A stretch of DNA of 64,000 nt from Dehalococcoidia bacterium (GTDB lineage: Bacteria > Chloroflexota > Dehalococcoidia > Bin125). The stretch spans positions 264,431-328,430 of the forward strand of contig OZ253456.1 of NCBI GenBank assembly GCA_965261225.1. The letters are read 5' to 3'. Position numbers and translations under genes: made by a program. This document shows positions 1 to 64,000 of the stretch, one piece after another (within the stretch, counting starts at the first letter, position 1; each line of letters starts with the position of its first letter). A model generated the notes under the pieces. The model was given only the letters and a program-made list of their open reading frames with translations, was not told the origin of the DNA and made no database searches.

Positions 1-988
1 CAGCAATCTTGATATAGGCGTTCGCGGTCGTCTTGGACTTGTCGCGAACAGTCACCGAGTACACGCTGGGCGGCAAGGTCGTGAATGTCGCCGTTTTGGT
101 GACGTCGGTCTCCGGGAAGTTGGAATCGTACGAGGCCTGCACCTCGTACTCGCGGTCGGAGATCAGACCTCGCAACCCAAACTCGATCGACGACTCGCCC
201 GGCAGAACCGCCTTCTTGGTGTTCCTCCAGCTATCGGTACCAGTGCGGAAGCGCAGATGCACCAAAGAGCCATTGGCAGCCGCAACGCCGACAAGGACAG
301 TCGCCGTTGTCTGTCCTTCGTCACTGACACTGATCGATTGCACGCTCGGCAGCAGCGTCGTGAAGATGTCTGACTTCTTTGCGTCCGCGTCGTTGAAGGT
401 GTTGTCGAAGGACGCTTCGATGGTGTACCTCGTGCCGGAGATCAGGTCGGTGAGAACGAACTCGTGCGAGGTGGCGAGAAGCGGGACAATCTCCGACTCG
501 GTCTCCCAGTTGGACTCGCCGTCCGCCCGATATTGGATGTAGACCCGGGCAGTGCCGTTGGGCTCCGTGACGTACACGGTGATCTTCGCGCCGGTCTGCG
601 ACCCTTCACTGGCAACGACTGAATCCACGCTCGGCGGGTTAGTCGCGAACTTGCCGGCCACGGTCCCGTCAGTTGGGAAGCCGCTGTCCAGCGAGGCCTC
701 AAGCTCGTAGTCGGTACCGGAAGTGAGTCCGCTCAGCGGGAAGTCAGCGAATGCATCGGTCGTGTCTACCGGCTCAGTTGCCTCCCAGGCCGCGTCCTTG
801 ACCCGATAGCGGAGATGAACCTGCTTCGAGTCGCCATTGGGCGCGCTGATCACGGCCTGGATGGTGGCTTCGGTCTGCGTCTTAGCGATCGCGCCGACCG
901 ACTCGATGGCCGGCGGCAGCGTCGTGAAACTGGTCGTCTTCGTGCGGTTGGTGGGGAACGTACTGACGTAAGAGGCCTCAACGTTGTA
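1..988 (-). pseudogene. Downstream FN3-type repeat portion of the large surface-protein gene. It is in the same frame as 989..3799 but lies beyond an in-frame TAG (989-991) and runs off the window start.
   Basis: Hand translation of the minus strand gives continuous FN3-like sequence (..QTGAKITVYVTEPNGTARVYIQYRADGESNWETESEIV.., ..SVTVRDKSKTTANAYIKIA) with no further stops; the codon phase is identical to ORF 989..3907. Confidence 0.6.
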
Positions 989-3799
989 CTAACGGTCCGA
1001 GGTCAGCCCGGTGAGTGGGAACTCAACCGACTCGACGCCAGATGCTCCGGGGAGCGAGGTTGTGGTCCAGTTCTCGGGATCCGAGACGAGCGCGTAGCGC
1101 ATGTGAACGTCTGTGTCGTTGGCCCCACTGACATTCACCGTGACCGTCGCCTCAGTCTGGGTGATGGAATCCTCATCCACTTCGACCGAGACCACGACAG
1201 GAGGCGAGGACCAGCCCGAATACTGGCGGTTGTTGTGCAGCGGGTAGGCGAGCAGACTGTCCCTGATGCTCGTCGAGGTGGTGTTGGAGCTGACCCAGAT
1301 AACGTGGCCGTCCGACCAGAATCCCTTGATTGTGCCGTGACCCTGAGACAACGTGACGTCGTGCACGTGGATATGGTGTGCGTTCGCCGGACCGTCCGAC
1401 AGATCAAGCGCAAACAGTTTCTTAGTGGAGCACTGCGTCGCCAGGTACAGCAGGCTCCGCGACGTATCGTGCCAGATGCCTACGACCTGATCGTGCTGAC
1501 AGATCGAGCTCGGTACAACGATGTCTTTGCCGAGCTCGCGCTCCCCCGTGGATGCGTTGTACGCGAACAAGGTGTCGCGCCCCGAGCCCGCAGCCCAGAA
1601 CGTCGAGCCGTCGCCGAAGAACGCCTCGGCCTCGGGAAGCTGCTTGCGGTCTACTCCACCTGGGTAACCCGGAGGTCGCATGTCCCCACTTGTTTGCACG
1701 ACCTCACTTGAGAGAAACGCGCCGTCCGATTTTCGGTATGGGACGAACCCGACTTCTTCGGCATGATTGATGTGTTCGATGTGATTCGCGGTCACCGTCC
1801 AGATGCGTGTGGCGTCGCCCCAGAGGCCGCCGTCCACGTCGGTGTAAATAGCCGTCGGGACACTGGTCGAGTCATTGTGCGCCGTGATGTCATCTTCGGC
1901 TTGTGCCGCGCCGGACGCCAGATCGTATGCGAAGAGTTTGTTGTCGGTCTCGTGCACAACCCAGATCGTGTCGCCGTCCGACCAGACGCCATGGGCGGAA
2001 TTGTCGACGAGCGTTCCCGAAGTCAGCTCGATATCGCGCAGCGCCGCGCAGCGATCGGTGGCGTAGTAGACGGCGCGGACTCGGTAGTGGTAGGTCGTGT
2101 CGGATTCGACGGTGTTGTCGAGGAAGCTGGTCGAGTCCGCGTCGACGCAGGTCAGGAAGGCGAAGGCGCCGTCGACGGATCGCTCGATCTCGTACTGGTA
2201 AACGTTCTGTCGCAGGCCGTTGGTGAGCGGCGTCGGCGGTGGTCCCCAACTGAGCCGCGTGCCGTCGGTCTCGTCGGCACGGGCGAAGCTCGTCGGACCG
2301 GCGCCGCCGTCGGCCACGGTGACCATCACATCGGGCAGTGTGATGACGTCATACTCAACCGAACTGCCGCCGATCGTATGGGCCAACTGGAGGCCGATGT
2401 CCTCGGTCACGGAGTCCGCGGCTGCTCTGACAATCACGTACTGCGGCGTCTCCCAGTTCGACGGGGTAATGGTGAGCTCTGTGGCGCTCAGGGTCACTAC
2501 TCCAGGCGAGGTGGAAATGGAAATAGTCACCGTGCCCGAGGGTTCGGAAATGATCGCAGCCTGGTAGTAGCCCTGGCCACCCTCGGGAACCGTGATATCG
2601 ATGGGGTTGATGATCCCACCGGTGTCGTCGTCGATCACGGTCGTCACGACATCGATGGATGTCCCCACATATAGGGGGCCGGAACCGGAGGCGCCTGAGA
2701 TTGTGATCGTCACCTCGTCGTTGGCGCCGTCGTCGTCACTACTGGCGCTGACGATCACCGTCTCACCCGTCGCCCAGTTCGACTCTTCGAACCTGATCCG
2801 CGCCGGGTTGACCGTCACATCGCCGCCGGCGTCGATCCGCATTTCGACATAGGGGGTATCGCTCGGTGCTACCGCCCTTGGCTTGCTGCAGAGCGAGATA
2901 GTGAACGTAGCTGTCTCACTCTCGGGAATGTAGAGACGCTCGGGATAGATCCTGACGCACGCCCCCGTCGCTTCGTCGTCCGCAATGTCCACTCTCACTG
3001 AAGGTCCTGAAAGGCCGTTGTAGCTGGCTTCGCTGCTGGAGCTCGCGAAGCTGACGCTGATCGTGGGGCGCTGATCCCACGGATTTCGCACCTGATCGTC
3101 CGTGGCGGTCACAGTGAACTGTTGCGGCGTGCTCCAATCGGTGCTGGTAAAGGTCAGCGTCGACGGGTCGATTGTGGCCCACTGGGTGTGGCTGACGGTC
3201 CCGCTGACCGTCACATCCGCTGTCGGCGGAGCTTCCAGCCGCACATCAATTGTCCCTGTGTGGCCCTCGGCGAAGCGCATCCGAGCCGGCGACGTGCTGA
3301 TCCCAGGGTCGTCGTCGTCTTCGATTGCCACCCTCACGGTCTGCACGTCCACGCTCAGGTACTCTGACGCGCTGCCAATCTTGATCGCGTGGGTGATGGT
3401 GGCTATGCCGTCGTTCGCATCCGCGTCATCCACGCCGTTGACGGTGATCTCCTGCGAACCGCGCCACCTCGTGGGCGTGAACTTGACCTCCGTCGGGTGG
3501 ACCGTGACGCCCTCACCGGCGCTGATGACGACTGTCATGTCAGCGCTCGGCGCGCTTCGTAGGTAGAGCCAATACCTGCCGCTGCTGCCTTCGTCGATCG
3601 TCAGATTAGTCGGGGTGACCAGCACCTCAACCTGGGTCGACTGAAAGGGTGCAGGGCCATCACTGGTGGATATGTCCGAGGACGCCGTGTCGAGGCCCTG
3701 GCCATGCACGGACCAGGTACCGGACAGCATGGCGCCGAGCAGGGCTGCGCCGGCGACTCCCACAAGCAGCCGCGTCGCGCGGGCGCTGCTCACTTCCAT
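989..3799 (-). CDS. Large secreted surface protein: Sec signal peptide, Ig/cadherin-like beta-sandwich repeats, W-S-D-G-x-x-I-W-V beta-propeller-like repeats, FN3. Terminated by TAG at a position that is Glu in paralogous repeats.
   Basis: ORF 989..3907; likely start at Met37 (MEVSSARATRLLVGVAGAALLGAMLSGTWSVHG signal peptide). Repeats FWSDGHVIWVSS / WSDGDTIWVVHETDNKLFAYDL are shared with the 12302..18955 protein. It ends ..FPLTGLTSDR*, whereas paralogous repeats read LISDREYEVQASY. Confidence 0.7.
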   Translation of the reverse strand: MEVSSARATRLLVGVAGAALLGAMLSGTWSVHGQGLDTASSDISTSDGPAPFQSTQVEVLVTPTNLTIDEGSSGRYWLYLRSAPSADMTVVISAGEGVTVHPTEVKFTPTRWRGSQEITVNGVDDADANDGIATITHAIKIGSASEYLSVDVQTVRVAIEDDDDPGISTSPARMRFAEGHTGTIDVRLEAPPTADVTVSGTVSHTQWATIDPSTLTFTSTDWSTPQQFTVTATDDQVRNPWDQRPTISVSFASSSSEASYNGLSGPSVRVDIADDEATGACVRIYPERLYIPESETATFTISLCSKPRAVAPSDTPYVEMRIDAGGDVTVNPARIRFEESNWATGETVIVSASSDDDGANDEVTITISGASGSGPLYVGTSIDVVTTVIDDDTGGIINPIDITVPEGGQGYYQAAIISEPSGTVTISISTSPGVVTLSATELTITPSNWETPQYVIVRAAADSVTEDIGLQLAHTIGGSSVEYDVITLPDVMVTVADGGAGPTSFARADETDGTRLSWGPPPTPLTNGLRQNVYQYEIERSVDGAFAFLTCVDADSTSFLDNTVESDTTYHYRVRAVYYATDRCAALRDIELTSGTLVDNSAHGVWSDGDTIWVVHETDNKLFAYDLASGAAQAEDDITAHNDSTSVPTAIYTDVDGGLWGDATRIWTVTANHIEHINHAEEVGFVPYRKSDGAFLSSEVVQTSGDMRPPGYPGGVDRKQLPEAEAFFGDGSTFWAAGSGRDTLFAYNASTGERELGKDIVVPSSICQHDQVVGIWHDTSRSLLYLATQCSTKKLFALDLSDGPANAHHIHVHDVTLSQGHGTIKGFWSDGHVIWVSSNTTSTSIRDSLLAYPLHNNRQYSGWSSPPVVVSVEVDEDSITQTEATVTVNVSGANDTDVHMRYALVSDPENWTTTSLPGASGVESVEFPLTGLTSDR

Positions 3800-3854
3800 A
3801 ACGCCCCGGCACATCAGCCGTGCCCATCGCGAGAGTTGACGCATCATTCGCCGG

Positions 3855-3890
3855 TCTCCACAAGCTCCACAATCTCCACAAGCTCCACAA
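3855..3890. repeat. Four tandem 9-bp direct repeats CTCCACAA(G/T) in the upstream region of the surface-protein gene.
   Basis: ctccacaag ctccacaat ctccacaag ctccacaat, read directly; it lies 56-91 nt upstream of the proposed ATG at 3797-3799. Confidence 0.8.
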
Positions 3891-4220
3891 TGAAGCCGAT
3901 GCCCCACTATAGGCAGATTTTTCCGTTATGTAAGTGCCGGAGAGAGGTTCTTTTGTCACCTGGTGAGCCTCGAAACGGTCGCCGAGGTGTTCGAATCGGA
4001 ACAGCCACACATCGTCGCGCTGCACGAAGCGCCTGGGGGATGGGCGGCCAACGGCTCTATGGACGCGCTTCGCCTGTGGCCTCGCCACAGGACAGAACCA
4101 GGGCAATGTGGTCCTCAGCCACGGTCGGGCCTGGGAGGCCGCCATCCGCCGAAGGCGCCACCGGTGGTGTTGAAACTCAAAGTCCCGCGCCCCGTGCGGG
4201 GCGTCGTCTCGGCCCGCAAC

Positions 4221-9529: not shown

Positions 9530-10309
9530 GTGAGCATTGAACTGGCGACGATCCATACCTTAGTCGAAGGTGACGGTGAGCGGACCTTCCTCTTGCTCAA
9601 CGGGGCGGGCCAGAGTCTGCGTAGTTGGGACTACGTCGCGCCGGGCTTGCTCGATATCGGCCGCATCATCCGCTTCGATGTGCCGGGCGTCGGCGAGAGC
9701 CCGCCGCCCGACCAGCCATACTCGTTCGAGGAACTCGGGTATGCCGCGCTGGAACTAGCTGAGCCGCACCGCGTCGGCTCACTGATAGTCGTGGGCCACG
9801 CCTGGGGCACCCGAGCCGCGCAAGTGATCGCGCGTGACCATTCGCCCGCAGCAGTGGTGATCGGCTCCGGCGGCGGCAAGTTCCCGCCGCTCGCCAGCGC
9901 AGCGGACGTCCAAACGGCGACCGTCGGCGCCGATGACGGGGATACAGAGGCGTGGAACCAGCGCTTCGAGCGCACACACTGCGCGCCCGGCTTCAGTGCT
10001 CGCAATCCCGAACGAGCCGACTGGCTCTTCCAACTCGTGCGCACCACGCCGACCGAGCGCGCCGTCGTCTCAGGCGCGATTGAGCGAACCCCGCTCGAGT
10101 CCTACTGGGGTCGCTTCGACTGCCCAACACTGCTCCTCTACGGCGCCGACGACCTGGTCGGCCATCCCGACAACGCCGAGGACCTGCACCGCGCACTGCC
10201 AAACTCGAAACTGGTCTACATCGAGCAGGCAGGCCACTTCGTCATCGTGGAACAAGGAGAACGCTTCGCCCGGGAGATTTGCGGCTGGATCGAAGAGCAG
10301 GGGTTCTGA
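9530..10309 (+). CDS. Alpha/beta-fold hydrolase with Ala at the nucleophile position (G-H-A-W-G).
   Basis: HGxP-like N-terminus, VVGHAWGT in place of Sm-x-Nu-x-Sm, C-terminal GHF catalytic His. GTG start; TGA stop. Confidence 0.7.
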   Translation: MSIELATIHTLVEGDGERTFLLLNGAGQSLRSWDYVAPGLLDIGRIIRFDVPGVGESPPPDQPYSFEELGYAALELAEPHRVGSLIVVGHAWGTRAAQVIARDHSPAAVVIGSGGGKFPPLASAADVQTATVGADDGDTEAWNQRFERTHCAPGFSARNPERADWLFQLVRTTPTERAVVSGAIERTPLESYWGRFDCPTLLLYGADDLVGHPDNAEDLHRALPNSKLVYIEQAGHFVIVEQGERFAREICGWIEEQGF

Positions 10310-10700: not shown

Positions 10701-11900
10701 ATGAGACGTGCGTTGTCGTTTGGAACCGAATCCGCGTTGGCCGCTGCCGCGCCGGCAATGTTGGTGCGCGCGTTGCTTGCCCTGGTCGTCGGCTGCGTGG
10801 CGCTTGTCGTTGCCTGCACCGACGATGACACAGCGACCGACATGGCTCCGGAGCTCCGGGAGCAACAGGCGGCAGTAGAGATCGAACAGGAGCAGGAGCG
10901 TTCGAGCGAGCGTGGCGAGGCTGCGCCAGCGTCGGCGGCAGAAACAACCCACGAAACCCAGTCCAACGAGATTCAAGACAGCGCCGAACCAGCAGATTCC
11001 GAGACGTCCGAGAAGCCCGAGACCGAGTCCGACGACGCGGCTGCCTCCCAATCCGCGTCAGACAATCCTCCTGCCGAATCGGGCGACCAGACCGCAACCG
11101 AGCAGACCGCAACCGAGCAGGCAGCAGCCGTCGAATCGGAGCCGGAGCCGTCCGTAGCCCAGGCCCAGTCTCAGCAAGCGCCAGTCGAAGCCGAAACTCA
11201 GTCCGAACCGGAACCAGCTCAGCAAGCGCAAGACGCAGACAACAACGTACGAGAAGAGGCTGAAGAGACTCACGTTGCGCAACCACCCGCGACAGACCCG
11301 GATCCAGACCCAGACGTAGACACGGAAGAGGAGCAGACCTCTCGGGTGGCGCCGACGCCCGTCGGCTCGGGTGACAATGTCGGTGGATCCAGCGCCATGA
11401 CCGAGGACGAACCCGCCGGCCAGCAACCGCTCGATGCTTCGCCGCAGAAGGGTGCGGGTGAGACGGACGTCGTAACAGTCAGCACCGCCAATACCTACAC
11501 CTGGCAGGACGGCGACTACACCAGGACAGTCACGCACCAGGCGGACCTGACTGCCACCGCGCAGGCCGACGGCGGAAGCGAGATCGGTCCAAGGCAAGCC
11601 GGCGGCGCGCAGAGCGACCCGAATCCGGTCTTCCAGTCCGACACCGGCGAGACGATGACCCTGCCCGGCGGCGTGCTGCTGGTGTTGGACGCAGAGTGGA
11701 ACCAGGCGAGGATCGATCAGTTCTTCAAGGACAACAACGTGGACCGCAGTCTGGTGCAGGAGCGGACATTCACGACGAACGCCTACTTCATCGAAACCGA
11801 GCCCGGCTTCCCCTCGCTCAACCTGGCAAACGAGCTGGTCGCGCAGGAGGGCGTCGTGTTCTCCAGTCCCAACTGGCAAACTGAGGTCGAGCTCCAGTGA
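10701..11900 (+). CDS. Secreted lipoprotein with a long acidic low-complexity region and a C-terminal globular domain.
   Basis: Signal peptide with lipobox LVVAC; E/Q/A/T/S/D-rich repeats (ATEQTATEQ); the stop overlaps the GTG start of the next gene (GTGA). Confidence 0.55.
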   Translation: MRRALSFGTESALAAAAPAMLVRALLALVVGCVALVVACTDDDTATDMAPELREQQAAVEIEQEQERSSERGEAAPASAAETTHETQSNEIQDSAEPADSETSEKPETESDDAAASQSASDNPPAESGDQTATEQTATEQAAAVESEPEPSVAQAQSQQAPVEAETQSEPEPAQQAQDADNNVREEAEETHVAQPPATDPDPDPDVDTEEEQTSRVAPTPVGSGDNVGGSSAMTEDEPAGQQPLDASPQKGAGETDVVTVSTANTYTWQDGDYTRTVTHQADLTATAQADGGSEIGPRQAGGAQSDPNPVFQSDTGETMTLPGGVLLVLDAEWNQARIDQFFKDNNVDRSLVQERTFTTNAYFIETEPGFPSLNLANELVAQEGVVFSSPNWQTEVELQ

Positions 11901-12301
11901 GAGTCCGATTTCTGCCGGTGTCCCCGGCGGTGTTCCTGCCGCTGTTCCTGGCGATCTGCGCCGTGCTCTGCTTCTCGCTGTTCACGAGCGTGATCCTGGC
12001 CCAAGCGCCCGGTGAACCGACCATCGACTCGGCAACGTCCGGCACGACGTCGATCTCGATCGCGTGGACCGCGCCAGGCGACATCGGAGGCTCTGCAATC
12101 ATCGCCTACGACCTGCGCTACATCCGCACCGACGCAGACGAGGACGGCGCAAGCAATTGGACCGAAAAACAAGACATCTGGACCTCGCGGAATCTCAGCT
12201 ACACGCTCTCCGGCCTCAGCAGGGACACGGCGTTCGACTTCCAGGTCCGCGCTGTCAATTCAGACAGCACAACGAGCGACGGTCCCTGGTCGGCCACCTA
12301 G
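11897..12301 (+). CDS. Signal peptide plus single FN3 domain. This is the probable N-terminal module of the giant S8 protease gene, cut off by an in-frame TAG at 12299-12301.
   Basis: MRVRFLPVSPAVFLPLFLAICAVLCFSL.. then an FN3 domain (ISIAWTAPGD..YDLRYIRTD..FQVRAVNSD). Same frame as 12302..18955. Confidence 0.6.
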   Translation: MRVRFLPVSPAVFLPLFLAICAVLCFSLFTSVILAQAPGEPTIDSATSGTTSISIAWTAPGDIGGSAIIAYDLRYIRTDADEDGASNWTEKQDIWTSRNLSYTLSGLSRDTAFDFQVRAVNSDSTTSDGPWSAT

Positions 12302-15300
12302 GGAGCGTCAACCACCGATCATGGAAACAGCCAGTCGGCGGCGACGACGCTGTCATTGGGCTCCTCGCTGGAAGGCAGCATCGACCCCGCGGATGACGAA
12401 GACTACTTCAAAATCGTGGCGCCATCGAACACCGACCTCTGGGTCTATACCAGCGGTGCACTCGACACCACAGGAGAACTGTCGAGGTCTGGAGGCTCAG
12501 TGCTGGCCAGGAACTATGACGGGCGTCTCGTTGACCACCCGCTGGGCTTCTCGATGCGATACCGCCTCAGCGGCGGAACCTTCTACGTCAAGGTCACCAG
12601 CCACGCAGGGAAGTACACCGGCGCCTACACGATTCATGCCCAACAAGCGCTTAGCCTCGGAGGCAGCTTCGCCAACCCAACGGAGATCAATCTTGACTCC
12701 GCGGCCGCAGGAAGCCTCTACCCGATCGCCGAATCTGAGACGGAAATCGATACGAACGGAGTCTATAGGTACTACACCATAATCGACATTGACGTCTTCA
12801 CCTTCGAACTACTCGTCCCCACCGAGGTCTGGATCCTCGTCGCGGGGAGATTCGACAGCACACTCACTCTCTTCAATTCTGATCAACAAGTACTCGCAAG
12901 CAACGACAACGGAGGCTGGACGTACAACTCGACTGCGTCAATGATCAGACGGAGCCTGAGTCGTGGCTCGTACTATTTGAAAGTTTCGGGAGACAACGGA
13001 GACGACTTCGGGCCATACGTCCTGTATCTGAAAACTGTCACTGAACCAGGAGGGTCCCTGGCTGACGCGACTCGGCTTACCCTCAACGTCCCCCAGACCG
13101 GTAATTTGGCTTCCAATACGGACCAAGAATATTTCAGCTTCACACTTGATGACGAGACCTACGCGAGCGTCTATGTCGCATCGTTCGACGGAGCGTTGCC
13201 CGTCGCTGTAAGTGGCCTGGACGCTATGACGGAGAGCTTTGAGATCACCCGGGCCGACTACTCCGACGCCGGTGAGCGTGCCGAAAGCTATTACAAATGG
13301 GGTAAGCTCCCCGCTGATACTTATAATATTTCTACTTCAACGACCAACAGTGGAGGCGGGAAGTACCTGCTCCACGTGCGCACCTCCAGGTACGCCGAAG
13401 TGGTTGACAACTGCACGACGTCGCTGACGACGACCACGAGCGACCCGTGGTACGGATGCCAGTGGCACCTCGATAACACCAGTCAGTTCGCCAATGGCGC
13501 CGAACAGGACATCAACGTCCAGGAACTGTGGGACGACTCCGACCCGTCCACCATGGGCGCGGGCATTCGTGTGGCAGTGGTCGACGACGGGATGCACTTC
13601 GAGCACGAGGACCTGACTGACAACGCCCTGACGTCGCAGAATCGTACCTATCATCGGTCACGCAGTAGCATCTACAATCCGGCCGACAGCCACGGGACTG
13701 CGGTGGCAAGCATCATCGCCGGCCGAGACAACTCATCTGGAGTTCGCGGTGTAGCCCCCAGAGCCTCCATCTTCGGTATCAAAATCCTCTCAAATGTCCC
13801 ATTCACTAACGACACTGAATCCGGCGCGATGGACCCTGAAATGTCCAACGCCGCCATATTCAGCAACAGCTGGGGACCTGTCACAAGAGGTAGACTCTTT
13901 CGACCGTCGGACGCCTGGGAACAGGCCGTAACGGGAGGAGTCAATGATGGGTTCGGCAAGAATGGAATCCTCTATGTATTTTCCGGAGGAAACGGTCATT
14001 TGGATGGTGACTACAGCAATCTGAATGGCTTTGCAAACTATTACGGCGTCGTCGCTGTGTGCGCAGTCAACTATGCCGACAAGCGCAGTTGGTATTCGGA
14101 ACTGGGGTCCAACCTCTGGATCTGCGCTCCATCCAACTCCCCCCGCGAAATTCCGGAGCTCCCTGCCATCACGACCGCCGACAACGAAGACCGATACCGA
14201 AACAGCTTCGGCGGCACCTCGGCGGCTGCCCCTATCGTCTCCGGGGTCGCCGCTCTCATACGTGCTGCCGATCGAGGCACACAGCCGACACTGAGCTGGC
14301 GCGATGTCAAGCTGATCCTCGCCAACTCGGCGCGCAAGAACGACGCGACCGATTCCGGCTGGCGAGATGGAGCGCTGAAATACGGTTCCACAACTGAGCG
14401 GTACTCGTTCAACCACGAGTACGGCTTCGGCATGGTCGACGCCGGCGCAGCCGTCGCACTGGCAAAGACCTGGACCAACCTTCCCGACATGCGGCAGATG
14501 ACCGGAACCTCAACCAATCAAGCTCAGACGATCCCCGACGCACCGAGTAGTGTCACGACAGGTAGAACGATTGAGAGCAGACTGACCATCGATGACTACG
14601 TGGAGTTCATCGAGTTCGTCCAGATCGACATCAACTTCCAGCACACCCACTTCGGACATCTCAGCGTGGAGTTAGTCTCGCCGTCGGGCAAACGGTCCTC
14701 GCTCAGCGTGCGCCGGGACGTCTACGTGGCCAACCCAGTTAATGGCCCCTTCCGATTTGGCTCGGCCCGACACCTCGGCGAAAACTCGGCCGGGACCTGG
14801 AAGCTGAGCGTGACCGATCACCGACCAAACGACACCGGAATCTTGCATTCCTGGAGCATCACCGTCTACGGACACGGCATCACGCCGAATGAGCCCGATA
14901 TAGATTCGACCACGGCAGGCGATCAGACAATCACCGTTGCCTGGAAAGCGCCGGACGACCACGGCACTTCCGATATCACCAAGTACGATCTTCGCTACAT
15001 TCGCTCCGACGCTTCCAACAAGTCCGACACCCGTTGGACCCTTCACACGGACATCACCACCGATACCTACGAAATTATGAGCCTGGAAGCCGGGGTGTAC
15101 TACGACATCCAGATGCGGGCGCACAACGATGGCGGAGCGGGTGTCTGGTCCGAGACCGAACAAGGCAACACGGACGCGGTCGCGCGCGCGACGCTCAATA
15201 CGCCGAGCGTCACGGCTCGTGCGGCTGAACTGCTCGTCACCTGGACGCCGCCGGGGACCGGACAGGTCGGGATCAGCAGATACGACGTGCGCTACATCCT

Positions 15301-18300
15301 CAGCAGCGCCACTGCCGAGGAGAAAGAAGTTGGCACGAATTGGATGGAAGAGGTGGCCTGGAGAACCGGCGGCGGCGACTTGAAGTACATCATCGATAAC
15401 CTCATGAACGGCGCCAGCTACGACGTGCAAGTGCGTGCGACCAACGCCCTGGGGACTAGCGATTGGTCGGCGACCCGAACCGGAGCGCCGCGCGTCGCCA
15501 ACCAGGCGCCCGCATTCCTTATGTCTGAAACGGGCACGCGCAGCATTGACGAGAACACGCCGGCCGGTCAAAGAATCGGCGCGGCTGTACGCGCTACCGA
15601 CTCCGACGACCGCCAATTGACCTACGACCTCGCGGGTATCGATGCCGCCCACTTTGAGATCAACAAGGACACGGGACAACTTCAGACATTGGACGAGTTC
15701 GATTTCGAGAACAGCAGGAGGACATACTCAGTCGACGTCGAGGTCTCGGACAACAAGGATGCCAACGGTGACGACGATCCCAGCGTCGACGCCACGCAGC
15801 CGGTCACGATCACGGTCGAGAACGTCAACGAGGCGCCGACGGTCTCGGGCGGGCAGGATTTCGACTTCCGAGAGGATCGCGGACGGTGGGACGTGGGCAA
15901 CTACACCGCGATCGACCCCGAGATGGACATGATCACCTGGTCGCTGTCCGGTCCTGACCGCGGCGACTTCGAGATCGACCTAGACGGCAATCTCAGTTTC
16001 CGCCAAGCGCCGGACGCCGATCGGCCCGCCGACCAAGACCGCGACAACAAGTATGAAGTCAACGTGGTCGCTTCCGACGGCAATCTCCGAGGGGAGCTCG
16101 ATGTCACGGTGAATGTCGAAGAGGTCGATGAAGCACCAGAGATTACCGGCAGGGGCGACATCGATTATGCGGAAAACAGCATCGGCGTTGTCGAGAGGTA
16201 CTCGGCCACCGATCCAGAAGGCGGGACCGTCATCTGGTCGCTGCCAACGAGCGATCAAGGCACGTTCACTTTGACGAACGGCCAACTTCGCTTCAGGTCG
16301 TCCCCCAACCACGAGGATCGCCCCAGCTATTCGGTCATCGTCCGCGCATCCGACGGCAGCCTCACGCAATCCTTGCCGATCACAATCAACATCACGGATA
16401 TCGATGAAACTGAGACCCTGACCCTCTCATCCGACCAGCCGGTTGAAAACGTGCGCCTGACCGCGACGTTAACCGAGCTGGATGAGGTCACCAACGAGCG
16501 ATGGCAATGGGCTCGCTCAACAAGTCGGAGCAGCGGCTATTCCGACATTCCCAGCGCGACCTTCAGCGATTACATGCCGGACAGCGATGATGTCGGCGAC
16601 TACCTGCGAATAACCCTCACGTACAATGACCCCCACCGGGCCGACCGAACACTAACTGCGACCACCAGTGGGCGCGTTCTGGCAGCTCCGGTGAACAACG
16701 AGCCACCAACGTTCGCGCCCGATGAAACCGGCCAGCGCAACGTCCAGGAGAACTCGGGACATCGAACAGCCATCGGCGTCGCTGTAGCGGCCACCGATCC
16801 GGAGAGTGACCGACTCGTCTACAGCATCAATGACACACACGGGAACAAGTTCGAAATCGACCGAAACAGCGGACAACTCCGAGTTGGTTCGGCCGCCAAC
16901 CTCGACCACGAGCCAATGAGCACTTATCCGGTAACTGTTTCTGTCTCCGACCCATTCAATCCCGCCGTGACGCAACGGGTGACCATAACCATCGAGGACG
17001 TGAACGAGCGTCCCGTTGCGATAGACGACATCGCAACCACAAACGAAGATGAGACGATATCTATCGATGTGGTTAATAACGTTGACGGCAGAGACTCAGA
17101 TCCCGAAAATAAAGATTTATCCGTCGAACTCACACGCAATCCGGCGAGCGGCAACGCTGAAGTCGAGGCGGATCAAACGGTCAAGTACACTCCGAAACCC
17201 AATTTCGATTGTTCAGACAGTTTCCAATACCGAGTGTTCGACGGAGTATTGAGATCTGCTCACTCTGCCACTGTAGTGGTCAACATCAACCCTCGTAACG
17301 ACCCCCCAGAGTTCGTTGGCGGCCCGTCAACTCGCCAAGTAGCCAAGAACGCCGAACCTGGCAGTAAGGTTGGTCAGCCGGTCGTTGCCTCAGACATTGA
17401 CATCGACGCCGCCAAAGAGTGCAACGACGATGAACTGACTTATCGCCTGAGGGGTTCGAACTTCTTTGAGATCGACGACAACACGGGTCAGATAGTGGTC
17501 AGCACTTTGGCGACCTTTGACCCAACAGTGACGCCCACTTACTTCGTCGAAGTGATCGCCGGAGACACGTCATTCGAGGAGGCGAGAACGGTCGTCGCCA
17601 TCAACGTCGTTGACCAGATCACCACGACAACAATCACCACCGGCGGTGGCGGCGGCGGCGGACCGCCGCCCATTCCGATCCCATCCGACGAGGAGTTCGA
17701 CTGGAATGTGACTCGCGACATTGAGTCGCTGGATCGCGACAACGACCTGCCCACCGGGCTGTGGTCGAACGGCGCGGTGCTCTGGGTTGTGGAGAATTCG
17801 GCGACCGGCGCCGACTTGCTCTTCGCCTACGACCTCAACACGGGCGAGCGTCTTGAAGAGCACGAGTTCGAACTCGAGCGGCGCAACCGCTTCTCGCACG
17901 GCATCTGGTCCGACGGCGAGCTCGTCTGGATCGCCGACAGTGGTCAGGACAAGCTCTTCGCTTACAACCTTGCAACAGGCGAGCGCGACGAAGACCGCGA
18001 CCTCGAACTCGACGAGCGCAACCGCGACCCGCGCGAAATCTGGTCCAATGGCGAGTCGATGCTGGTGCTCGATAGCGTCAAGGACGCGTTGTTCGTCTAC
18101 GATCTTGAATCGGGCCGGTTGCTCGCCGAGTTCCCGCTGGACAAGCTCAACAAGAGCCCGCGCGGGATCTGGTCGGACGGCTTCACGATCTGGGTCTCGG
18201 ACGACGGCGCCAAGCGTATCTTCGCCTATCGCATCGAAGGCGAGACGTTCAAACGCTATGAGGACCAGGAGTTCACCTTCCGCTCGCTGCTCAAGGCCGG

Positions 18301-21102: not shown

Positions 21103-21432
21103 GTGGAATATTCTGAGCAGATGATGTCCGGCGACGATGGTGATGTTCCCGCTCGGGGACGCATCATATTTTCTCCGCGAGTAAAGAACACGCTGTTCGT
21201 GGAGCAGCGTGGTCGCTGCATGTATTGCGGTCGCCGCATGAGCAACCGTTACCTCGAGATCGACCACAAGTGGCCAGTCAGTCGTAACGGTGGGAACGAG
21301 CGCTCGAATCTGCAGTTGCTGTGCACGGCCTGCAACATGCGCAAGGGAATCCAGACCGACGAGGAGTTTCGCTCACGCTATTGGCGCTTGTTGCCGCCCG
21401 ACAGGACGATCCCCGAACCGCCAATCGGATAA
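21103..21432 (+). CDS. Free-standing small HNH endonuclease.
   Basis: CMYCGRRMSNRYLEIDHKWPVSRNGGNERSNLQLLCTACNMRKG (HNH with Zn-binding Cys pairs); 109 aa; ~0.5 kb of non-coding DNA on each side; TAA stop. Confidence 0.8.
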   Translation: MEYSEQMMSGDDGDVPARGRIIFSPRVKNTLFVEQRGRCMYCGRRMSNRYLEIDHKWPVSRNGGNERSNLQLLCTACNMRKGIQTDEEFRSRYWRLLPPDRTIPEPPIG

Positions 21433-21891
21433 GAACTGTTCACTGCAGAAACGCAATGGACTCGGGCCTCGCCGGAGGTACGTTCCATCTACCGCGAACG
21501 CTTCACAAGTGCGAGGCGTCGCCGTCAGCCAGCTGGGTTCGAAGGCGAAAACCCGAATGGATGTTTGACGGCTCCTCTGCTGCTGATCGTCGCTCTTCTC
21601 GTGGCGGCGCTCTCATTGCGTGGCAGCTGAGGCCGATCCTGCGAGTGCTTCGTTCCTGCTGTTGCACTCTTGACCGGTACTCGGACTCCCAGCCGGGAAG
21701 CAAACTTCGCGCTGTTCGGGTAGCCCGAGCTTGCAAGCAGTGATGTTGCAGTGAGGTCTCGATGACCATTGCCAAGTCCGCGCTCTGACCGCCTCGTCGC
21801 CCAATGCCGGCGACGGGTCAATGTCGCCGTCCGAAACGCTACTCAGTCGTCTCGGCGACTGGAAACTCCTGGTGACCAGGTTTCGTCACGC

Positions 21892-23519: not shown

Positions 23520-23550
23520 GCGACTTGTCCGCGACGACGTCCAGGATGTT

Positions 23551-24928: not shown

Positions 24929-25005
24929 GGCGGTCCCTCCAGTGGTCTGATGAGGCGGAAACGATAGCGAGCATTGAGTCGGGAGTCGACCAGTCTCTTC
25001 CGAGG

Positions 25006-28693: not shown

Positions 28694-28837
28694 CGGTAGG
28701 CGCTCCCAAGATCGCTCGTAGCATGATTGGTTGACTCACGCCGGAGCAAGTGGATAAGACTCCAAGTACCATCCACTTGCCCACAAGTGACCACAGCTGC
28801 TGGCTACAGGCCGTAACTGCGTTGGCGACACGGCGCC

Positions 28838-29449: not shown

Positions 29450-29462
29450 GAATTGGCCCTGC

Positions 29463-37590: not shown

Positions 37591-37625
37591 CCGACAGGCT
37601 GCCCGCGCTGCCCACCGAGATCTCG

Positions 37626-40867: not shown

Positions 40868-40876
40868 GTGTGGCTC

Positions 40877-44994: not shown

Positions 44995-45316
44995 AGAGCA
45001 GTACCGTGCAGCCCAAAACGGGTCTGGCGCGTGTCGGTCGAGCAAGCTGGGCATCAGAGTCAAGCGCATTCCGTTCCGGCTGGGTGTCGCCGTGAGTGCG
45101 ATGATCTCGTTCTTGGCTCTGATCGCAGCGGTTGACGCGGCGTCAATGGCGCTGGATTCGAGCACAGCGATCGCTGAGGGTGAGGAGTCGTCGGCCTTCG
45201 TCGTCCAGCAAGTTGACGCGGGAGGGGACTTCACCTGCATGTTGACGACGGAGCAGACGCTGGTCTGCGCTGGTCGAAACACGACTGGACAGACGAACGC
45301 GCCGCCAGGCCGCTAA

Positions 45317-45354
45317 GCGCAGGTCAGCGCAGGTCAGCGCAGGTCAGCGCAGGA
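45317..45354. repeat. Three tandem copies of the 10-bp unit GCAGGTCAGC inside the RCC1 coding region.
   Basis: gcgcaggtcagc gcaggtcagc gcaggtcagc gcagga, read directly. A single copy would give an in-frame ..AQVSAGGSHGCAIGVEGS.. reading. Confidence 0.75.
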
Positions 45355-46037
45355 GGGTCGCACGGCTGCGCGATCGGCGTTGAAGGCTCCTTGTCCTGTT
45401 GGGGCTGGAACGCAGCGGGTCAAGCAGCCGCCCCAACCGGCGAATTCATGCAAGTGAGCGCCGGTTCACGACACAGCTGCGCGATTGATGTTGAGGGCGC
45501 CCTGACTTGTTGGGACGCAGATCCGCTGTACGGTACGCCGCTGGCACAAGGGTCGGTCACTTCAACAGTGTCGGCACGGAGTCCAGGCTCAGAGCAACAT
45601 GACAGCGAAGGTGGCAGCGAAGGTGACAGCGATGCGAGGAGCGGGGTCCGGGTCGTGCAAGTCGAAGTTGGTACGTCCTTCGCTTGCGCGTTGACGGAGG
45701 ACGGACAAGCTATCTGTGGTGGTTACAACTATTACCATCAGGCAGACGCGCCTCAGCTCACATTCACCCAGCTCAGCACAGGCAGCTATCACGCTTGTGG
45801 ACTTCGCGAAGATCAATCGGCGTCTTGTTGGGGCAAAAACGATCACGGCCAAACGAACACGCCCCCGGTTCGCTTCATTCAGGTCAGCGCTGGCGCCAAT
45901 CATTCCTGCGCCTTGCGCGACGATGGCGAGCTTGTCTGCTGGGGCAGGAACGATAAAGGTCAAATCGATTCCCCGTCCTGGACATTCGAGCGACTTGACG
46001 CAGGTTCAAACCACAATTGCGCTCAGTGATGTTCGCA

Positions 46038-47470: not shown

Positions 47471-48045
47471 GGCTGTTCACGATAGTTGGAGTGCGTCGTA
47501 GATGAGGGCGAGATAGATGACGTTGAGGCAGATGAGGTCGAGTTTGTCGTAGCGAGTGGCGATCCGGCGGAAACGCTTGAGCCGGCAGCCGAAGTGCTCC
47601 ACCTCGTTGCGTCGGCGGTAGAGTTCGCGGTCGTGGGTCCCGGTCGGGTTGCGGTAGCTAGGCGGCGGGACGACGGGGAGCTAGCCCAGGTCGCGCGCCA
47701 GCCGGCGCGTCTAGTCGCCGCGGTCGCCGCGGTCCATGATCAGCGCCGGGCCGTCCGGTGACGACGCGCTCCAAGACGCCGGCCTTCGCCCGGCGATTGA
47801 GCCGCATGTGGATCGTGTGCCAGTGGCCAAACTCCGCTGGCAACCCGCGCCAGGTGCAGCCCTCTTTCGCGATGTAGAACAGTGCATCCAGGACTTGGCG
47901 CTGGGGAATCGTCAACTTGCCTCGCGGCGTCGGCAGCAACGGCGCGACCCGCTCGTACTGAGCAGCCGTCAGTGTCATCCGGTCACCAAGGCCGCGCCGC
48001 CAAGCACAACCACTCTGTCAGATCCGCGGCAGTGGACTGTTTCGC
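47471..48045 (-). mobile_element. IS5-family (IS427-group) insertion sequence, truncated copy: orfA intact, ~230-bp internal deletion in orfB, degenerate right end.
   Basis: Left end ggctgttcacgatagttggagtgcgtcgtagat is almost identical to the 53259 copy. orfA 47658..47978 (MTLTAAQYERVAPLLPTPRGKLTIPQRQVLDALFYIAKEGCTWRGLP..). Confidence 0.75.
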
Positions 48046-50860: not shown

Positions 50861-51300
50861 TCAGCAGGCTGCTGAAAGATCGCGTATGAGATCATCGAGG
50901 TGCGAGTGTTGTTGTAACTGAGGGAGACTGCGATGCGTGGTCAGTCTGAGCGGTAGGCGACGTTGCTGTTGGGTTTGACGCCGGACGGATTCGTGCCCCG
51001 GGACCATCCGCTGCGCCGGATCAAGCCGCTGGTCGATTCGGCGCTGGGGTGCATGTCGCCCGTGTTCGACGAGGTGTACGCGGCCGGCGGACGGCGCTCG
51101 ATTCCGCCGCACGACGCGACATGACGGCTACCAACACAGCCAACGCCGGCGCAAGCGGGTCGAGGAAGTCGTCGGCTCGATCAAGACGATCGGCGGCGGC
51201 AAGCTGCGCTATCTCGGTCGGGCGCGCAACAAGCTCTGGCTGGAACTGACCGCCGCCGCCTATGATCTTGTCCGCATCGCGAAGCTCGATCTGGCTCCCG
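50861..51300 (+). pseudogene. Remnant of an IS5-family transposase: N-terminal ~55 aa with an in-frame TAG and C-terminal ~45 aa; the middle is deleted.
   Basis: MRGQSER*ATLLLGLTPDGFVPRDHPLRRIKPLVDSALGCMSPVFDEVYAAGGRRSIPP and ..VGSIKTIGGGKLRYLGRARNKLWLELTAAAYDLVRIAKLDLAPA are typical IS5-family Tnp termini. Confidence 0.6.
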
Positions 51301-51448
51301 CCTAGGACAACGCCGACAGTCACGACGGAGCGCTCAAGATCAGGCCCGCCGACGCACCTCGATCAAACGGCCACCGGGCACGAACAGAGTCGCCACTGTC
51401 TCGTTGCGCAGCCAATCTCTGTCACAGCCCACATTCTTCAGCATCCTG

Positions 51449-52625
51449 CTAGTGTCCTGAGTCGGGAATACGGTTGAGATATCCGGCGAGGTTGTCGAAG
51501 ATCTGGTCGGCGGTCTTGTGCCAGACGAAGGGGCGCGGGTGTTCGTTCCAGCCGGCGACCCAGCGTTCGATGTCGCGGGTCAGGTCGGCCACGCTGCGGT
51601 GCGCGCCGCGCCTGAGCCACTTGGTGGTCAGTTCGGCGAACCAGCGTTCGACCAGGTTCATCCAGGAGCTGTAGGTGGGGGTGAAGTGAAAGCTGAAGCG
51701 GGGATGACGCTGGAGCCAGCGCTGGATCTCGGCGGTCCGGTGGGTGGCCACGTTGTCCAAGACGACATGCACGGCGAGTTCGTCGGGTACCTGCTCGTCA
51801 ATCAGGTCGAGGAAGCGCCGGAACTCGCGGGCCCGGTGTCGCGGGGTCAGGTCGGCGATCACGTGGCCCGAGGCGATATCCAGCGCCGCGTAGAGGTTGG
51901 TGGCGCCATGACGGACGTAACCGTGAGTCTGACGGCGAGGCACGCCGGGCAGCATCGGCCGCGTCGCAGCGGTGCGGTCAAGCGCCCGGATCTGGGTTTT
52001 CTCGTCCACACACAGGACGACCGCCGCGTCGGGTGGGTTGAGATAGAGGCCGGCCACGTCGCGCACCTTGTCGATGAACTGCGGGTCGGGCGACAGCTTG
52101 AACTGCTCGACGAGGTGCGGCTTGAGGCCGAAGGCGCGCCAGATCCTGGAGACCGCCGTCTGCGACATGCCCATCTCGGCGGCCATCGAACGGGTTGACC
52201 AGTGAGTCGCGTGGCGCGGTTGCTGTTCCAGCGTCTTGACGATCACCGCTTCCACCTGCTCGTCGCCAATCGTGCGGGGCGCGCCGGGACGCGGCTCATC
52301 GCTCAGCCCATCCAGCCGCCGCTGGGCGAAGCGTCGCCGCCACTTGCCGGCCGTGACCGGATGGCAACCGAGCGCCGCGCCGATCTCCGTGTTCGTTTGC
52401 CCGGCCGCCGCTCCGAGCACGATCCGGCTGCGCAGCGCCAGGGCCTGCGCCGTGCTCGGTCGGCGCGCCCAGCGCTCCAGCGTCTCTCGCTCCTCCGCAC
52501 TCAGCACGATCGTCACCGTCGGGCGGCCCAGTTGGGTACGCATGACACTCCACCGAGAACCCCGGATGACCAAACCAACTCCACCATACCCGCTTGTTCA
52601 TCGCATTAGCGACTCAGGACACTAG
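51449..52625 (-). mobile_element. IS630-family insertion sequence (~1.18 kb) with an intact 374-aa transposase (CDS 51449..52573) and ~16-bp terminal inverted repeats CTAGTGTCCTGAGTCG flanked by TA.
   Basis: HTH plus DDE transposase (..VLCVDEKTQIRAL..VVLDNVATH..PTYSSWMNLVERWF..). TIRs ctagtgtcctgagtcg (51449-51464) and cgactcaggacactag (52610-52625), read directly. Confidence 0.85.
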
Positions 52626-53258
52626 GTCTGGGCGCTCGTGCCACCGGTCGTCGCTGGATGGTGTGTGCTGGTCATTTTGGACGCGTACGAATCGCTCCTC
52701 GATCAGGTGGTCCAACACCAGCCTGGCATTGGCGCGCGCGGATTGTTGGACGGTGTCAAGCGAAATCTCCGGGTGTTGCGGAGCTTCATACGGATCATCG
52801 ATCCCGGTGAAGTTGGCGATCTCACCGCGGCGCGCCCTGGCGTACATGCCCTTGGGGTCGCGCTCTTCGCAGACATGGAGCGGCGTGTCGACGAACACCT
52901 CGATAAAATGTTTGGATCCGACCATGGTCCGTACCTCATTTCGCACAGCGCTGTAGGGGCTCACGGCCGCACAGATTGCGACTCCGCCATGACGGACGAT
53001 TTCCGAGGCGACGAATCCAATCCGCCGTATGTTGGCGTCGCGGTCCTCTTTGGAGAAGCCCAGGCCCTTGGACAAGTGCGTTCTGACGACGTCCCCGTCG
53101 AGGACCGTTACCTGCCGCCCGTGCTCCATGAACAAGCCCGTGAGCAGCTCGGCGGTTGTGGACTTGCCTGAACCGCTGAGGCCGGTGAACCAGACGCACA
53201 CCCCCTGGCGATGCTTCGGCGGATGGTGCTCAGCCACGATCCTGGCGACCTCGGGCAT
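52614..53258 (-). CDS. cysC: Adenylyl-sulfate (APS) kinase; orphan, with its 3' end running into the IS630 terminal repeat.
   Basis: P-loop ..WFTGLSGSGKST.. and APS-kinase core. The last three codons (..LVS*) and the stop are encoded by the IS630 TIR. The start ATG is 4 bp from the IS427-like left end. Confidence 0.8.
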   Translation of the reverse strand: MPEVARIVAEHHPPKHRQGVCVWFTGLSGSGKSTTAELLTGLFMEHGRQVTVLDGDVVRTHLSKGLGFSKEDRDANIRRIGFVASEIVRHGGVAICAAVSPYSAVRNEVRTMVGSKHFIEVFVDTPLHVCEERDPKGMYARARRGEIANFTGIDDPYEAPQHPEISLDTVQQSARANARLVLDHLIEERFVRVQNDQHTPSSDDRWHERPDLVS

Positions 53259-54099
53259 GGGCTTGTTCACAGTAGTTGGAGTGCGTCGTAGATCAGGGCG
53301 AGATGGATGAAGCTGAGGAAGATCAGGTCGAGTTTGTCGTAGCGAGTGGCGATCCGGCGGAAGCGCTTGAGCCGGCAGCAGAAGCGCTCGACCTCGTTGC
53401 GGCAGCGGTAGAGTTGGCGGTCGTAGGTCCAGGTCGGGTTGCGGTAGCTGGGCGGCGGGACGACCGGGCGGTAGCCCAGGTCGCGCGCCAGTTGACGCGT
53501 CTCATTGCCGTGGTCGGCACGGCCCATGATCAGCGCCGGGCCACCTGTGACTGGTCCGAGCCGGCGCAGCAACTCGCGACCAGCGGGTGCATCACCGGCC
53601 TGACCAGGTGAGAGTCCGATGATCATCGGCGTGCGCTCGTTGGCGACCAGCGCATGCAGCTTGGTGCTCAGGCCGCCACGCGAGCGTCCGATCGCTTGGC
53701 GCCCCTGTTTCGCAGTGCGCCCGTGCCGTGCGCATGCAGCTTGATGATCGTGCTGTCCAGCGACAACGCGTCCAGTTCCAGCGCAGCGAGCTGGTCGCGC
53801 TGCAGTTCCGTGACGACGCGCTCCAACACGCCCGCTTTGGCCCAGCGATTGAGCCGCATGTAGATCGTGTGCCAGTGGCCGAACTCGGTTGGCAGGCCGC
53901 GCCAGGTGCAGCCCTCTTTCGCGATGTAGAACAACGCATCCAGGACCTGGCGCGGGGGAATCGTCAACTTGCCTCGCGGCGTCGGCAGCAAGGGCGCGAC
54001 CCGCTCGTACTGAGCATCTGTCAGTGTCATCTGGTCACCAAGGCCGCGCCGCCAAGCACCCCCACTATGTCAGATCTGCGGGCTACTGTGAACAGCCCC
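53259..54099 (-). mobile_element. IS5-family (IS427-group) insertion sequence, apparently complete (841 bp). orfA 53668..54030 and orfB 53267..53626 are in a -1 frameshift arrangement; ~17-bp TIRs.
   Basis: TIRs gggcttgttcacagtag / ctactgtgaacagcccc. orfA MTLTDAQYERVAPLLPTPRGKL..LDSTIIKLHAHGTGA (D1), orfB ..LIMGRADHGNETRQL..YRCRNEVERFCCRLKRFRRIATRYDK (D2, E). The orfB frame is open upstream across the orfA stop. Confidence 0.8.
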
Positions 54100-63277: not shown

Positions 63278-64000
63278 TAGGCCGCTCCCGCCCGAATGCG
63301 GGGGTCGACCAGCCGGTAGGAGATGTCGACGACGATGTTGGCCAGCACGATCGAGACCGCGATCAGCAGGATTGCGGTCTGCGTGACCGGGAAGTCGCCC
63401 CCGTCGATCGCCTGGATCGTCAGCCGGCCGATGCCGGGCCAGGCGAAGACTGTCTCCACGATGATCGCGCCGGCGATCAGCCGGCCCGACTGGAGACCGA
63501 GGATCGTCACCACCGGCAGCAGCGCGTGGCGCAGGGCGTGGCGAACGACGACCGTGCGCTCGGACAGGCCCTTGGCCCGCGCCGTGCGCACGAAGTCCGC
63601 GCCCATCGCGTCGATCATGCCGGAGCGGGTCAGCCGCATGAGTGCGGCGGCGGTGAACGTGCCCATCGTGATCATGGGCAGGATCATGTGTTTGAGGCTG
63701 CCGCTGCCGCCGGTGGGCAGCCAGCCCAACTCAACGCTGAAGAAGAAGATCAGCATCAAGCCCAGCCAGAAGTCGGGCACGGCCTGGCCGAACACGGCCA
63801 GCAGCCGGGCCAACCAGTCCGCCGGACGGCCGCGGCGCAACGACGCGATCACGCCCGTCAACAGGCCCAGCACGAGGGCGAACAGCAGCGCGCCGACGCC
63901 CAGCTGCAGCGTCTTCACGACCCGCGAGCTGGCTTCGCCGAGGGCGTCCCGGCCGTTGAGCAGTGACCGGCCCATGTCGAGCTGGACCGTGTTCCAGAGG
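63277..64000 (-). CDS. ABC transporter permease (DppB/OppB-like), N-terminus beyond the window end.
   Basis: TM segments plus EAA loop (..ARAKGLSERTVVVRHALRHALLPV..); the frame is open to the window edge. Confidence 0.75.
   Translation of the reverse strand, partial: LWNTVQLDMGRSLLNGRDALGEASSRVVKTLQLGVGALLFALVLGLLTGVIASLRRGRPADWLARLLAVFGQAVPDFWLGLMLIFFFSVELGWLPTGGSGSLKHMILPMITMGTFTAAALMRLTRSGMIDAMGADFVRTARAKGLSERTVVVRHALRHALLPVVTILGLQSGRLIAGAIIVETVFAWPGIGRLTIQAIDGGDFPVTQTAILLIAVSIVLANIVVDISYRLVDPRIRAGAA

Follow-up and report, generated by a model that had tools for sequence, protein, structure and literature searches.

The window considered here is a stretch of 64,000 nucleotides, positions 264,431 to 328,430 of contig OZ253456.1 (assembly GCA_965261225.1) from a Dehalococcoidia bacterium, and the coordinates below refer to this whole stretch. 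Its intact genes include those for a carboxylase (PccB), a dehydrogenase, APS kinase, a Baeyer-Villiger-type monooxygenase, oxidoreductases, and permeases. The same window holds a series of broken genes (Table 1), among them those for an FN3/propeller surface protein, a giant secreted S8 protease, an HNH endonuclease, a family-5 solute-binding protein (SBP), an RCC1-repeat protein, a P450, MgtE, and a fusion of a ddl-like ligase to an M20 peptidase (ddl-M20), and the nature of their lesions is the subject of this report. Disruption affects about 13 gene-like units out of some 47, or about 9 of 41 when mobile-element and restriction fragments are set aside. A cluster of broken genes had been proposed in the initial annotation of this DNA, and most of its lesions are verified against orthologues; three entries, namely an alanine at the nucleophile position of a hydrolase, the truncation of an MscS-like protein, and the fusion of ddl to an M20 fragment, turned out not to be lesions.

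The G+C content of the window is 62%, with a strong bias at third codon positions (GC3 of 0.7-0.9). Its PccB protein is 98%, 96%, and 93% identical to those of chromosome-scale metagenome-assembled genomes (MAGs) labelled "Dehalococcoidia bacterium", the matches ranked next are Chloroflexota bins from sponge metagenomes, and the neighbourhood of the hits consists mostly of sponge bins. On these protein matches the source organism is placed in a sponge-associated Dehalococcoidia clade, its probable lifestyle being taken from its relatives, in agreement with the host-associated setting suggested at the outset. Exact product matches identify the window as a segment of a public chromosome-scale MAG contig of 3,651,207 bp (NCBI, ENA), whose deposited products include the 941-aa FN3 protein, the 132-aa ddl product, a 406-aa mgtE product, a 2199-aa S8 piece, and two SBP pieces; the chromosomes of relatives measure 2.7-3.6 Mb. 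The sequence thus appears to be a metagenome-assembled genome. Related contigs bear names of the ctgN_8x_l type, metagenome assembly with metaMDBG has been described in sponge genome notes (PMC12648040), and the window genome presumably derives from long, accurate reads of the metaMDBG type. The eukaryote-like and symbiont-type content of the window comprises LRR, RCC1, FN3, cadherin-like, and GPP34 proteins, type I and type III restriction genes, and insertion sequences (IS) of the IS5 and IS630 families.

Table 1. Features of the 64,000-nucleotide window, with the lesions and distinguishing marks of each
Feature	Position	Strand	Remarks
FN3/propeller surface protein gene, open at window start	2..3925	-	premature TAG 989-991
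P450 C-terminal remnant, once part of a GPP34-P450 gene	4221..5189	-	Pfam p450 profile positions 216-452 only
GPP34 part of the former GPP34-P450 gene	5071-5943	-	called as a separate gene
Inverted repeat	7555-7703		48 nt, 88% complementary, 53-nt spacer; intergenic
Baeyer-Villiger-type monooxygenase gene	7777-9408		intact
Alpha/beta-hydrolase-fold gene	9530..10309	+	intact; GHAWG, Ala at nucleophile position
Acidic secreted protein gene	10665-11900		
Giant secreted S8 protease/cadherin/propeller gene	11885..18955	+	premature TAG 12299-12301
PccB carboxylase gene	18955-20544	-	intact
HNH endonuclease gene	21121..21630	+	premature TAA 21430-21432
Variable island	23525..37606		mgtE, type I restriction remnants, ddl-M20, Asp23/DUF6286, MscS-like, ECF sigma factor, intact type III mod/res pair
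mgtE pseudogene	23551..24928	-	internal deletion changing frame; second frameshift near 3' end
Type I restriction remnant region	25221..27410	-	hsdR fragment and hsdS
hsdR N-terminal fragment	25221-25463	-	81 aa; HSDR_N E=0.001, weak, below Pfam cut-off
hsdS	26583-27410	-	one Methylase_S recognition domain only
ddl-M20 pseudogene	27179..28693	-	TGA 28295-28297 (W133*); internal deletion of ~110 aa; last ~215 aa lost
MscS-like gene	30031..30828	-	265 aa; canonical C-terminal domain absent; Pfam match ends in MS_channel_2nd at 63/68
Two tandem AhpD-related selenoprotein genes	39779..41965	-	in-frame TGAs 40142-40144 and 41240-41242 in C-F-Y-U-T motif
Family-5 SBP pseudogene	42701..44752	-	premature TAA 44234-44236; SBP_bac_5 spans the stop
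RCC1-repeat gene remnant	45146..46029	+	residues 1-63 to TAA 45314-45316, then ~458-686 in another frame
Inverted repeats flanking IS5 remnant and LRR gene	47326-47382 and 50809-50865		57 nt, 72% complementary
Degraded IS5-family copy	47474..48029	-	262-bp internal deletion and internal stops; DUF4096 match; repeat families D1, D2 against full copy
LRR protein gene, N-terminal region	50171-50530	-	tandem domain
Local IS cluster	50979..54081	-	APS kinase gene between elements
DDE_Tnp_1_6 fragment	50979-51302	+	Pfam
IS630-type transposase gene	51449-52573	-	intact; Pfam
APS kinase gene	52614-53270	-	between IS elements
IS5 copy, full length	53264-54081	-	looks intact; terminal inverted repeats, overlapping orfA/orfB
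HAD-family hydrolase gene	56915-57559	-	GC3 0.47

Lesions were judged against orthologues in closely related loci of sponge-associated Dehalococcoidia (L001, L002, L081, L082, L083, and others), a pseudogene being called where an in-frame stop or frame break faces a sense codon and a continuous open reading frame (ORF) in an orthologue of high identity. Breaks of this kind were found in the S8, ddl-M20, SBP, FN3, HNH, RCC1, and P450 genes. Base-substitution stops backed by the sense codons of relatives number five (FN3, S8, HNH, ddl-M20, and SBP), and in stop-to-stop frames four genes appear as one stop dividing two long same-frame stretches of coding-type composition. No pseudogene rate could be drawn from an automated all-against-all comparison of 37 related loci for stops and frame switches: its noise was too great, antisense ORFs of high GC3 acting as false queries, and the HNH stop was its sole useful yield.

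The S8 gene gives the clearest view of a single lesion. Its TAG cuts the signal peptide and the first FN3 domain off from the remaining protein; L002 has TAC at the site, within 121 bp that show no other difference from the window, and L001 has TAT. The gene is intact, with 2351 codons, in L002 and encodes 2352 residues in a sister genome of 3,636,229 bp, so that the stop reported by the initial annotation stands. The first ~1,100 codons differ by about 1.4% from L002, the ratio of non-synonymous to synonymous substitution rates (dN/dS) against L002 is 0.33, and downstream of the stop there is no sign of relaxed selection, a polarised comparison that has few informative sites in the close 5' part and is confounded by mosaicism in the 3' part. 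The gene is indeed a mosaic, those first ~1100 codons being about 99% identical to L002 and the later cadherin and propeller parts far more divergent, with the reverse pattern in L001, which suggests, from the alignments, recombination between alleles. The S8 gene of L001 is itself frameshifted, and its frame changes exactly where a part of 65% identity meets one of 94% identity.

The stop in the FN3/propeller gene falls in the first of a C-terminal series of FN3-like repeats of 93 residues, and its counterpart in the sister repeat is GAG. The frame remains open for 329 codons beyond the TAG with a GC3 of 0.80, the site is GAG in L082 (where the gene, P0067, is intact with 1460 residues) and GCA in L083, and the truncated product of the window is deposited as P0011 (941 aa). 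This stop had likewise been called correctly. A further one, in the HNH gene, was absent from the earlier list; its site is CAA in both L001 and L002, whose orthologues have 169 residues and a hydrophobic C-terminal tail. The best NCBIfam matches of this protein, all below threshold, are to the HNH domain of IscB and Cas9-type nucleases, and its gene adjoins the carboxylase gene in several genomes, a conserved arrangement.

The ddl-M20 gene carries more than one lesion. In L002 it is an intact fusion of an ATP-grasp ligase to an M20 peptidase, 757 residues long, with TGG at the site of the stop; the fusion, which had been taken as part of the damage, is thus native, and the TGA, correctly noticed, lies two nucleotides away from the position first given for it. 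The resulting 132-aa product recurs with two residue differences in the 3,636,229-bp genome (P0086), and since that genome has an intact S8 gene, the ddl stop would have been inherited and the S8 stop would be younger.

For the SBP gene, the window has TAA-TGG whereas L081 has CAT-TTA, confirming the stop first read there, and a further contig (L085, described below) bears the same TAA. The other sequenced members of the 90% identity cluster of this protein (23 members) are truncated or split otherwise, in pieces of 170 and 369, 244, or 512 residues. The signal peptide is in frame only in the allele of the window, L081 having a one-base deletion that puts it out of frame. No transporter genes adjoin the gene in a relative with an intact copy, and a scan of metagenome contigs for the SBP returned no relative. 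The neighbouring RCC1-repeat gene is intact in L081, where it encodes 1207 residues; the stop and change of frame described at the outset leave only the two segments given in Table 1, a structure found again in L085.

The remaining lesions are deletions and frameshifts. In L082 (7506-9413), a single ORF of 635 residues fuses GPP34 to a complete P450 (profile positions 11-448). Some 370 bp of this ORF are missing from the window, which bears out the claimed loss of the 5' half of the P450. Separate GPP34 and half-P450 gene calls like those of the window are found in L083, which aligns to it without a break, and the deletion appears, on that alignment, to be common to the two. GPP34 is a family reported in association with sponge symbiosis (PMC11706023). 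In mgtE, for which a frameshift and a deletion had been claimed and are both confirmed, the MgtE_N and MgtE membrane domains lie in different frames, about 50 codons are gone (the counterpart of residues 246-299 of PDB chain 2yvx is absent), and the true C-terminus ("VDPAVASA...") lies in a third frame past a run of six G. The IS5 transposase remnant is also as first described. As for the hsdR fragment, a piece of 81 residues is present, but its domain match is weak; a trypsin-like peptidase gene lies between it and hsdS, and no hsdM was found among the type I restriction remnants.

These restriction remnants, mgtE, and ddl-M20 lie in an island of about 14 kb, which is missing in L001 between the polysaccharide deacetylase and dehydrogenase genes and is partial in L002 and L081. 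Taken over the whole window, the lesions fall in accessory genes throughout: secreted or surface and eukaryote-like proteins, a transporter, restriction-modification, mobile elements, an orphan SBP, a small nuclease, and island cargo. No core gene in the window is frameshifted.

In-frame stops within conserved domains are also what stop-codon reassignment would produce. Elsewhere, TGA has been reassigned to tryptophan or glycine, and TAG is recoded in some phages and bacteria. If the stops of the window were read through or reassigned (by selenocysteine or pyrrolysine insertion, a suppressor tRNA, or an altered code), the genes would be functional, and two points lend this some colour: the ddl TGA replaces a tryptophan, the commonest TGA reassignment, and two other TGAs of the window, absent from the initial list, really are selenocysteine codons. 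The latter lie in two tandem genes that match the family AhpD_rel_CFYUT (NF041238) with 346 bits against a cut-off of 175. Their TGA is kept in 11 of 11 copies from eight sequences (the window and seven relatives), and a conserved hairpin, GCUGCUC-GGUCG-GAGCAGC, follows it some 18 nt downstream. Tandem genes, motif, conserved UGA, and hairpin all agree with the family, by which the TGAs at 40142 and 41240 are identified as predicted selenocysteine codons and not lesions. Gene callers break these genes in pieces, as in L081, where 241 and 76 and 241 and 115 residues are called.

This likeness explains those two TGAs and none of the five lesions. At the latter, the residues replaced are inconsistent: TAG occupies a Glu site in one gene and a Tyr site in another, TAA a Gln site and one of His or another residue, and TGA a Trp site. 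Each of the three stops still terminates conserved full-length genes, and the lesion sites are sense codons in close relatives. Moreover, ddl-M20 has been deleted twice, and no tRNA gene was found in the window by ARAGORN, hence no local suppressor tRNA; Rfam at the gathering threshold also gave no match in the window. Recoding is thereby reduced to a vanishingly small probability, and, going by the codons compared, neither reassignment nor read-through can account for the five lesions. The initial annotation had reached the same conclusion because stops of each kind also end intact genes, and this holds for other genes ending in TAA, TAG, and TGA, but the HNH gene that it cited as intact ends in a premature TAA itself.

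Two features resemble damage without being such. The intact alpha/beta-hydrolase-fold gene has alanine in its GHAWG motif, which had been taken as a recent loss of the catalytic Ser or Asp. A hydrolase killed by a recent mutation was rejected: the orthologues of L012 and L015 (72-75% amino acid identity) have the same motif, with no Ser or Asp at the elbow, and are of full length, and the alanine is, as far as these alignments go, an old conserved feature. The protein is predicted to be either a non-canonical or a non-catalytic family member held by selection. Its gene adjoins that of the monooxygenase, and the alanine is present in all three orthologues seen. The MscS-like protein, for its part, had been called truncated. 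It has the same length of 265 residues in all four sequence variants on at least nine contigs, so that the short form is, on the available variants, a state common to relatives, and the window is not peculiar in having it. When the protein was searched against PDB sequences, no match came up.

Whether the lesions are real mutations or faults of a low-accuracy assembly was a second question left by the initial annotation. Wrong bases or chimeric strain joins in a MAG would be a natural source of spurious stops, the sequence evidently is a MAG, and single-base indels do occur in relatives of low coverage: the contig L085 (ENA assembly ERZ25068833; 5.6 kb, 2x coverage) matches window positions 40870-46466 with no mismatches and three single-base insertions, and L081 has five G where the window has six. 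The frameshift of the L001 S8 gene lies at the mosaic junction, and the second mgtE frameshift lies in the run of six G. The nonsense lesions, however, are substitutions and not homopolymer indels, and base-calling errors cannot account for genes hit three times or for losses of hundreds of bases. Several lesions recur beyond one assembly, the ddl stop in a second genome and the SBP and RCC1 lesions in L085, which is a separate contig that may or may not share a sample with the window chromosome.

A branch test points the same way. Changes in eight intact genes (7.6 kb) were polarised with sister genomes in two comparisons, giving 144 synonymous, 35 non-synonymous, and one nonsense change on the window branch against 372 synonymous and 131 non-synonymous on the sister branches (four counts summed, L001 being counted twice). 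Had random errors been common enough to put in five stops, they would have brought some 1.6 further non-synonymous differences per kb, and as no such excess is seen, errors are disfavoured. Window-specific changes lean towards AT (97 GC-to-AT against 53), a direction also taken by three of the four stops that could be polarised. A methylation or sequence context common to the five nonsense sites was considered and rejected, as they have no motif in common. An artefact of assembly or consensus is on these grounds very improbable, and of the alternative raised at the outset only the observation that the sequence comes from a metagenome survives.

The broken genes are probably genuine pseudogenes, left by an ongoing turnover in the flexible, host-interaction part of a sponge symbiont's gene content. 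Such turnover is of a known kind, and the broken genes point neither to a new genetic code nor to a faulty assembly. Stop-creating base substitutions, deletions between or within repeats, and IS activity would produce the pseudogenes; the damage would fall on dispensable or intermittently useful accessory genes, under relaxed or fluctuating selection on host interaction as the likely cause; and lesions would accrue over time, some inherited, some unique, and some genes hit thrice. The distribution of the lesions agrees with such a spread of ages, the P450 deletion, the ddl stop, and the MscS form being apparently common to other genomes, and the S8, FN3, and HNH stops and the RCC1 collapse being confined to the window as far as seen.

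The same loci are moreover hit differently in sister genomes. Besides the S8 gene of L001, the FN3 gene is frameshifted in L083, and the FN3 products P0012 and P0013 end in off-frame sequence; the type III mod gene has a Trp-to-stop change in L081; and the mod/res pair of L002 is scattered over several frames. In the L002 orthologue of the acidic secreted protein (18633-19898), single-base changes of -1 and +1 lie about 490 bp apart, neither in a homopolymer. Both ends of that gene therefore lie in one frame, only its low-complexity middle being shifted. As sisters have inactivated the same genes by different lesions, these accessory genes seem dispensable in the clade.

Several points weigh against this account. 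The five stop calls are read from assembled consensus sequence, and those in the S8, FN3, and HNH genes have been seen in one assembly only. The single-base indels of relatives, in contigs of 8x or 2x coverage, may be errors, which leaves the argument from parallel decay with moderate weight. The 64 kb cover a small part of the 3,651,207-bp chromosome, and "accessory only" is inseparable from a genome-wide process on that basis. Lastly, five nonsense substitutions stand against one small-indel frameshift (that of mgtE in its six-G run), a ratio that is unusual for bacterial pseudogenes and unexplained.

The genome-wide process just mentioned is what the initial annotation had in mind, namely early reductive evolution after recent host restriction, in which selection would be relaxed everywhere, pseudogenes and IS elements would accumulate along the whole chromosome, and the window would be a typical sample. 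The sponge-associated clade, the disruption of some 20-28% of gene units, the lesions in relatives, and the four IS-related pieces at 47-54 kb are all compatible with it. Within the window, the IS proliferation first described is a local cluster of these pieces, two intact elements and two degraded ones. Substitution rates in intact genes, a check proposed at the outset, speak against it: the ratio of non-synonymous to synonymous changes on the window branch (35:144, roughly a dN/dS of 0.08) is below that of the sister branches (131:372), so that no relaxation was detected, and the intact genes of the window are under strong purifying selection. Further local signs against it are the 62% G+C and high GC3, the chromosome sizes of relatives, and the intactness of all housekeeping genes of the window. 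The lesions concentrate in the island and in eukaryote-like or surface genes, and several of them are old and shared, unlike a recent burst. Reductive evolution on this scale is therefore unsupported by the window and rather unlikely, though less so than the other alternatives.

A further alternative is that the inactivation of surface and eukaryote-like genes, such as those for S8, FN3, SBP, and RCC1, is itself adaptive, being selected or frequency-dependent within particular sponge hosts. As it would predict, the S8, FN3, SBP, and type III mod genes bear independent lesions from one genome to another; the S8, FN3, and HNH stops are single hits, and the S8 gene combines closeness to L002 in its 5' part with the lack of relaxation downstream of its stop noted above. 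On the other side, very long genes are large mutational targets, so that recurrence is expected under neutrality, some lesions of relatives may be sequencing errors, and the non-surface genes hit (mgtE, ddl-M20, P450, and HNH) fit poorly. The idea is accordingly held to be improbable. If true, adaptive loss or an on/off polymorphism in the symbiont population would be a counterpart of pathoadaptive gene loss, and the nonsense alleles would be markers of host-specific adaptation and not of decay.

Pseudogene accumulation is well known from the host-restricted bacteria Shigella, Salmonella Typhi, and Sodalis. The turnover proposed for the window has in common with them the many recent inactivations, the mixture of nonsense changes, deletions, and IS elements, the involvement of surface and transport genes, the repeated loss of the same genes in different lineages, and the presence of some genes with a single lesion. 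It differs in that core genes show no local relaxation, the genome is neither AT-shifted nor small, and nonsense changes outnumber small frameshifts. The signature reported for sponge symbionts, on the other hand, is an enrichment of eukaryote-like proteins, restriction-modification, and mobile elements (PMC4850255, PMC8163846), and the LRR, RCC1, FN3, cadherin-like, and GPP34 genes, the type I/III restriction genes, and the IS5/IS630 elements of the window conform to it; that literature stresses gain and enrichment, whereas several such genes are being lost here. At the level of titles and abstracts, no paper addressing pseudogenes in sponge Chloroflexota was found.

Chromosome-scale genomes of sponge-associated Dehalococcoidia thus carry many recent pseudogenes among their host-interaction genes, with no new mechanism shown. 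Comparisons of gene content that ignore inactivation would overstate the host-interaction repertoires counted as "enriched" in sponge symbionts, and in-frame stops need to be sorted into true lesions, conserved selenocysteine codons, and look-alikes of damage, all three of which occur in this one window.

A number of minor features accompany these genes. The tandem domain in the N-terminal region of the LRR protein is 60% identical to the C-terminus of the RCC1 protein encoded at L081 5583-9206, and the shared domain looks, from this identity, like a module carried on different eukaryote-like repeat proteins. The LRR gene (830 aa) and the IS5 remnant are flanked together by the inverted repeats listed in Table 1, and a composite mobile unit may have brought the gene in. 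The intergenic inverted repeat ahead of the monooxygenase gene is a possible palindromic repeat element. Finally, the GC3 of the HAD-family hydrolase gene compares with 0.7-0.9 in its neighbours, within a region at 56-58 kb of 56% G+C, a composition consistent with recent horizontal acquisition.

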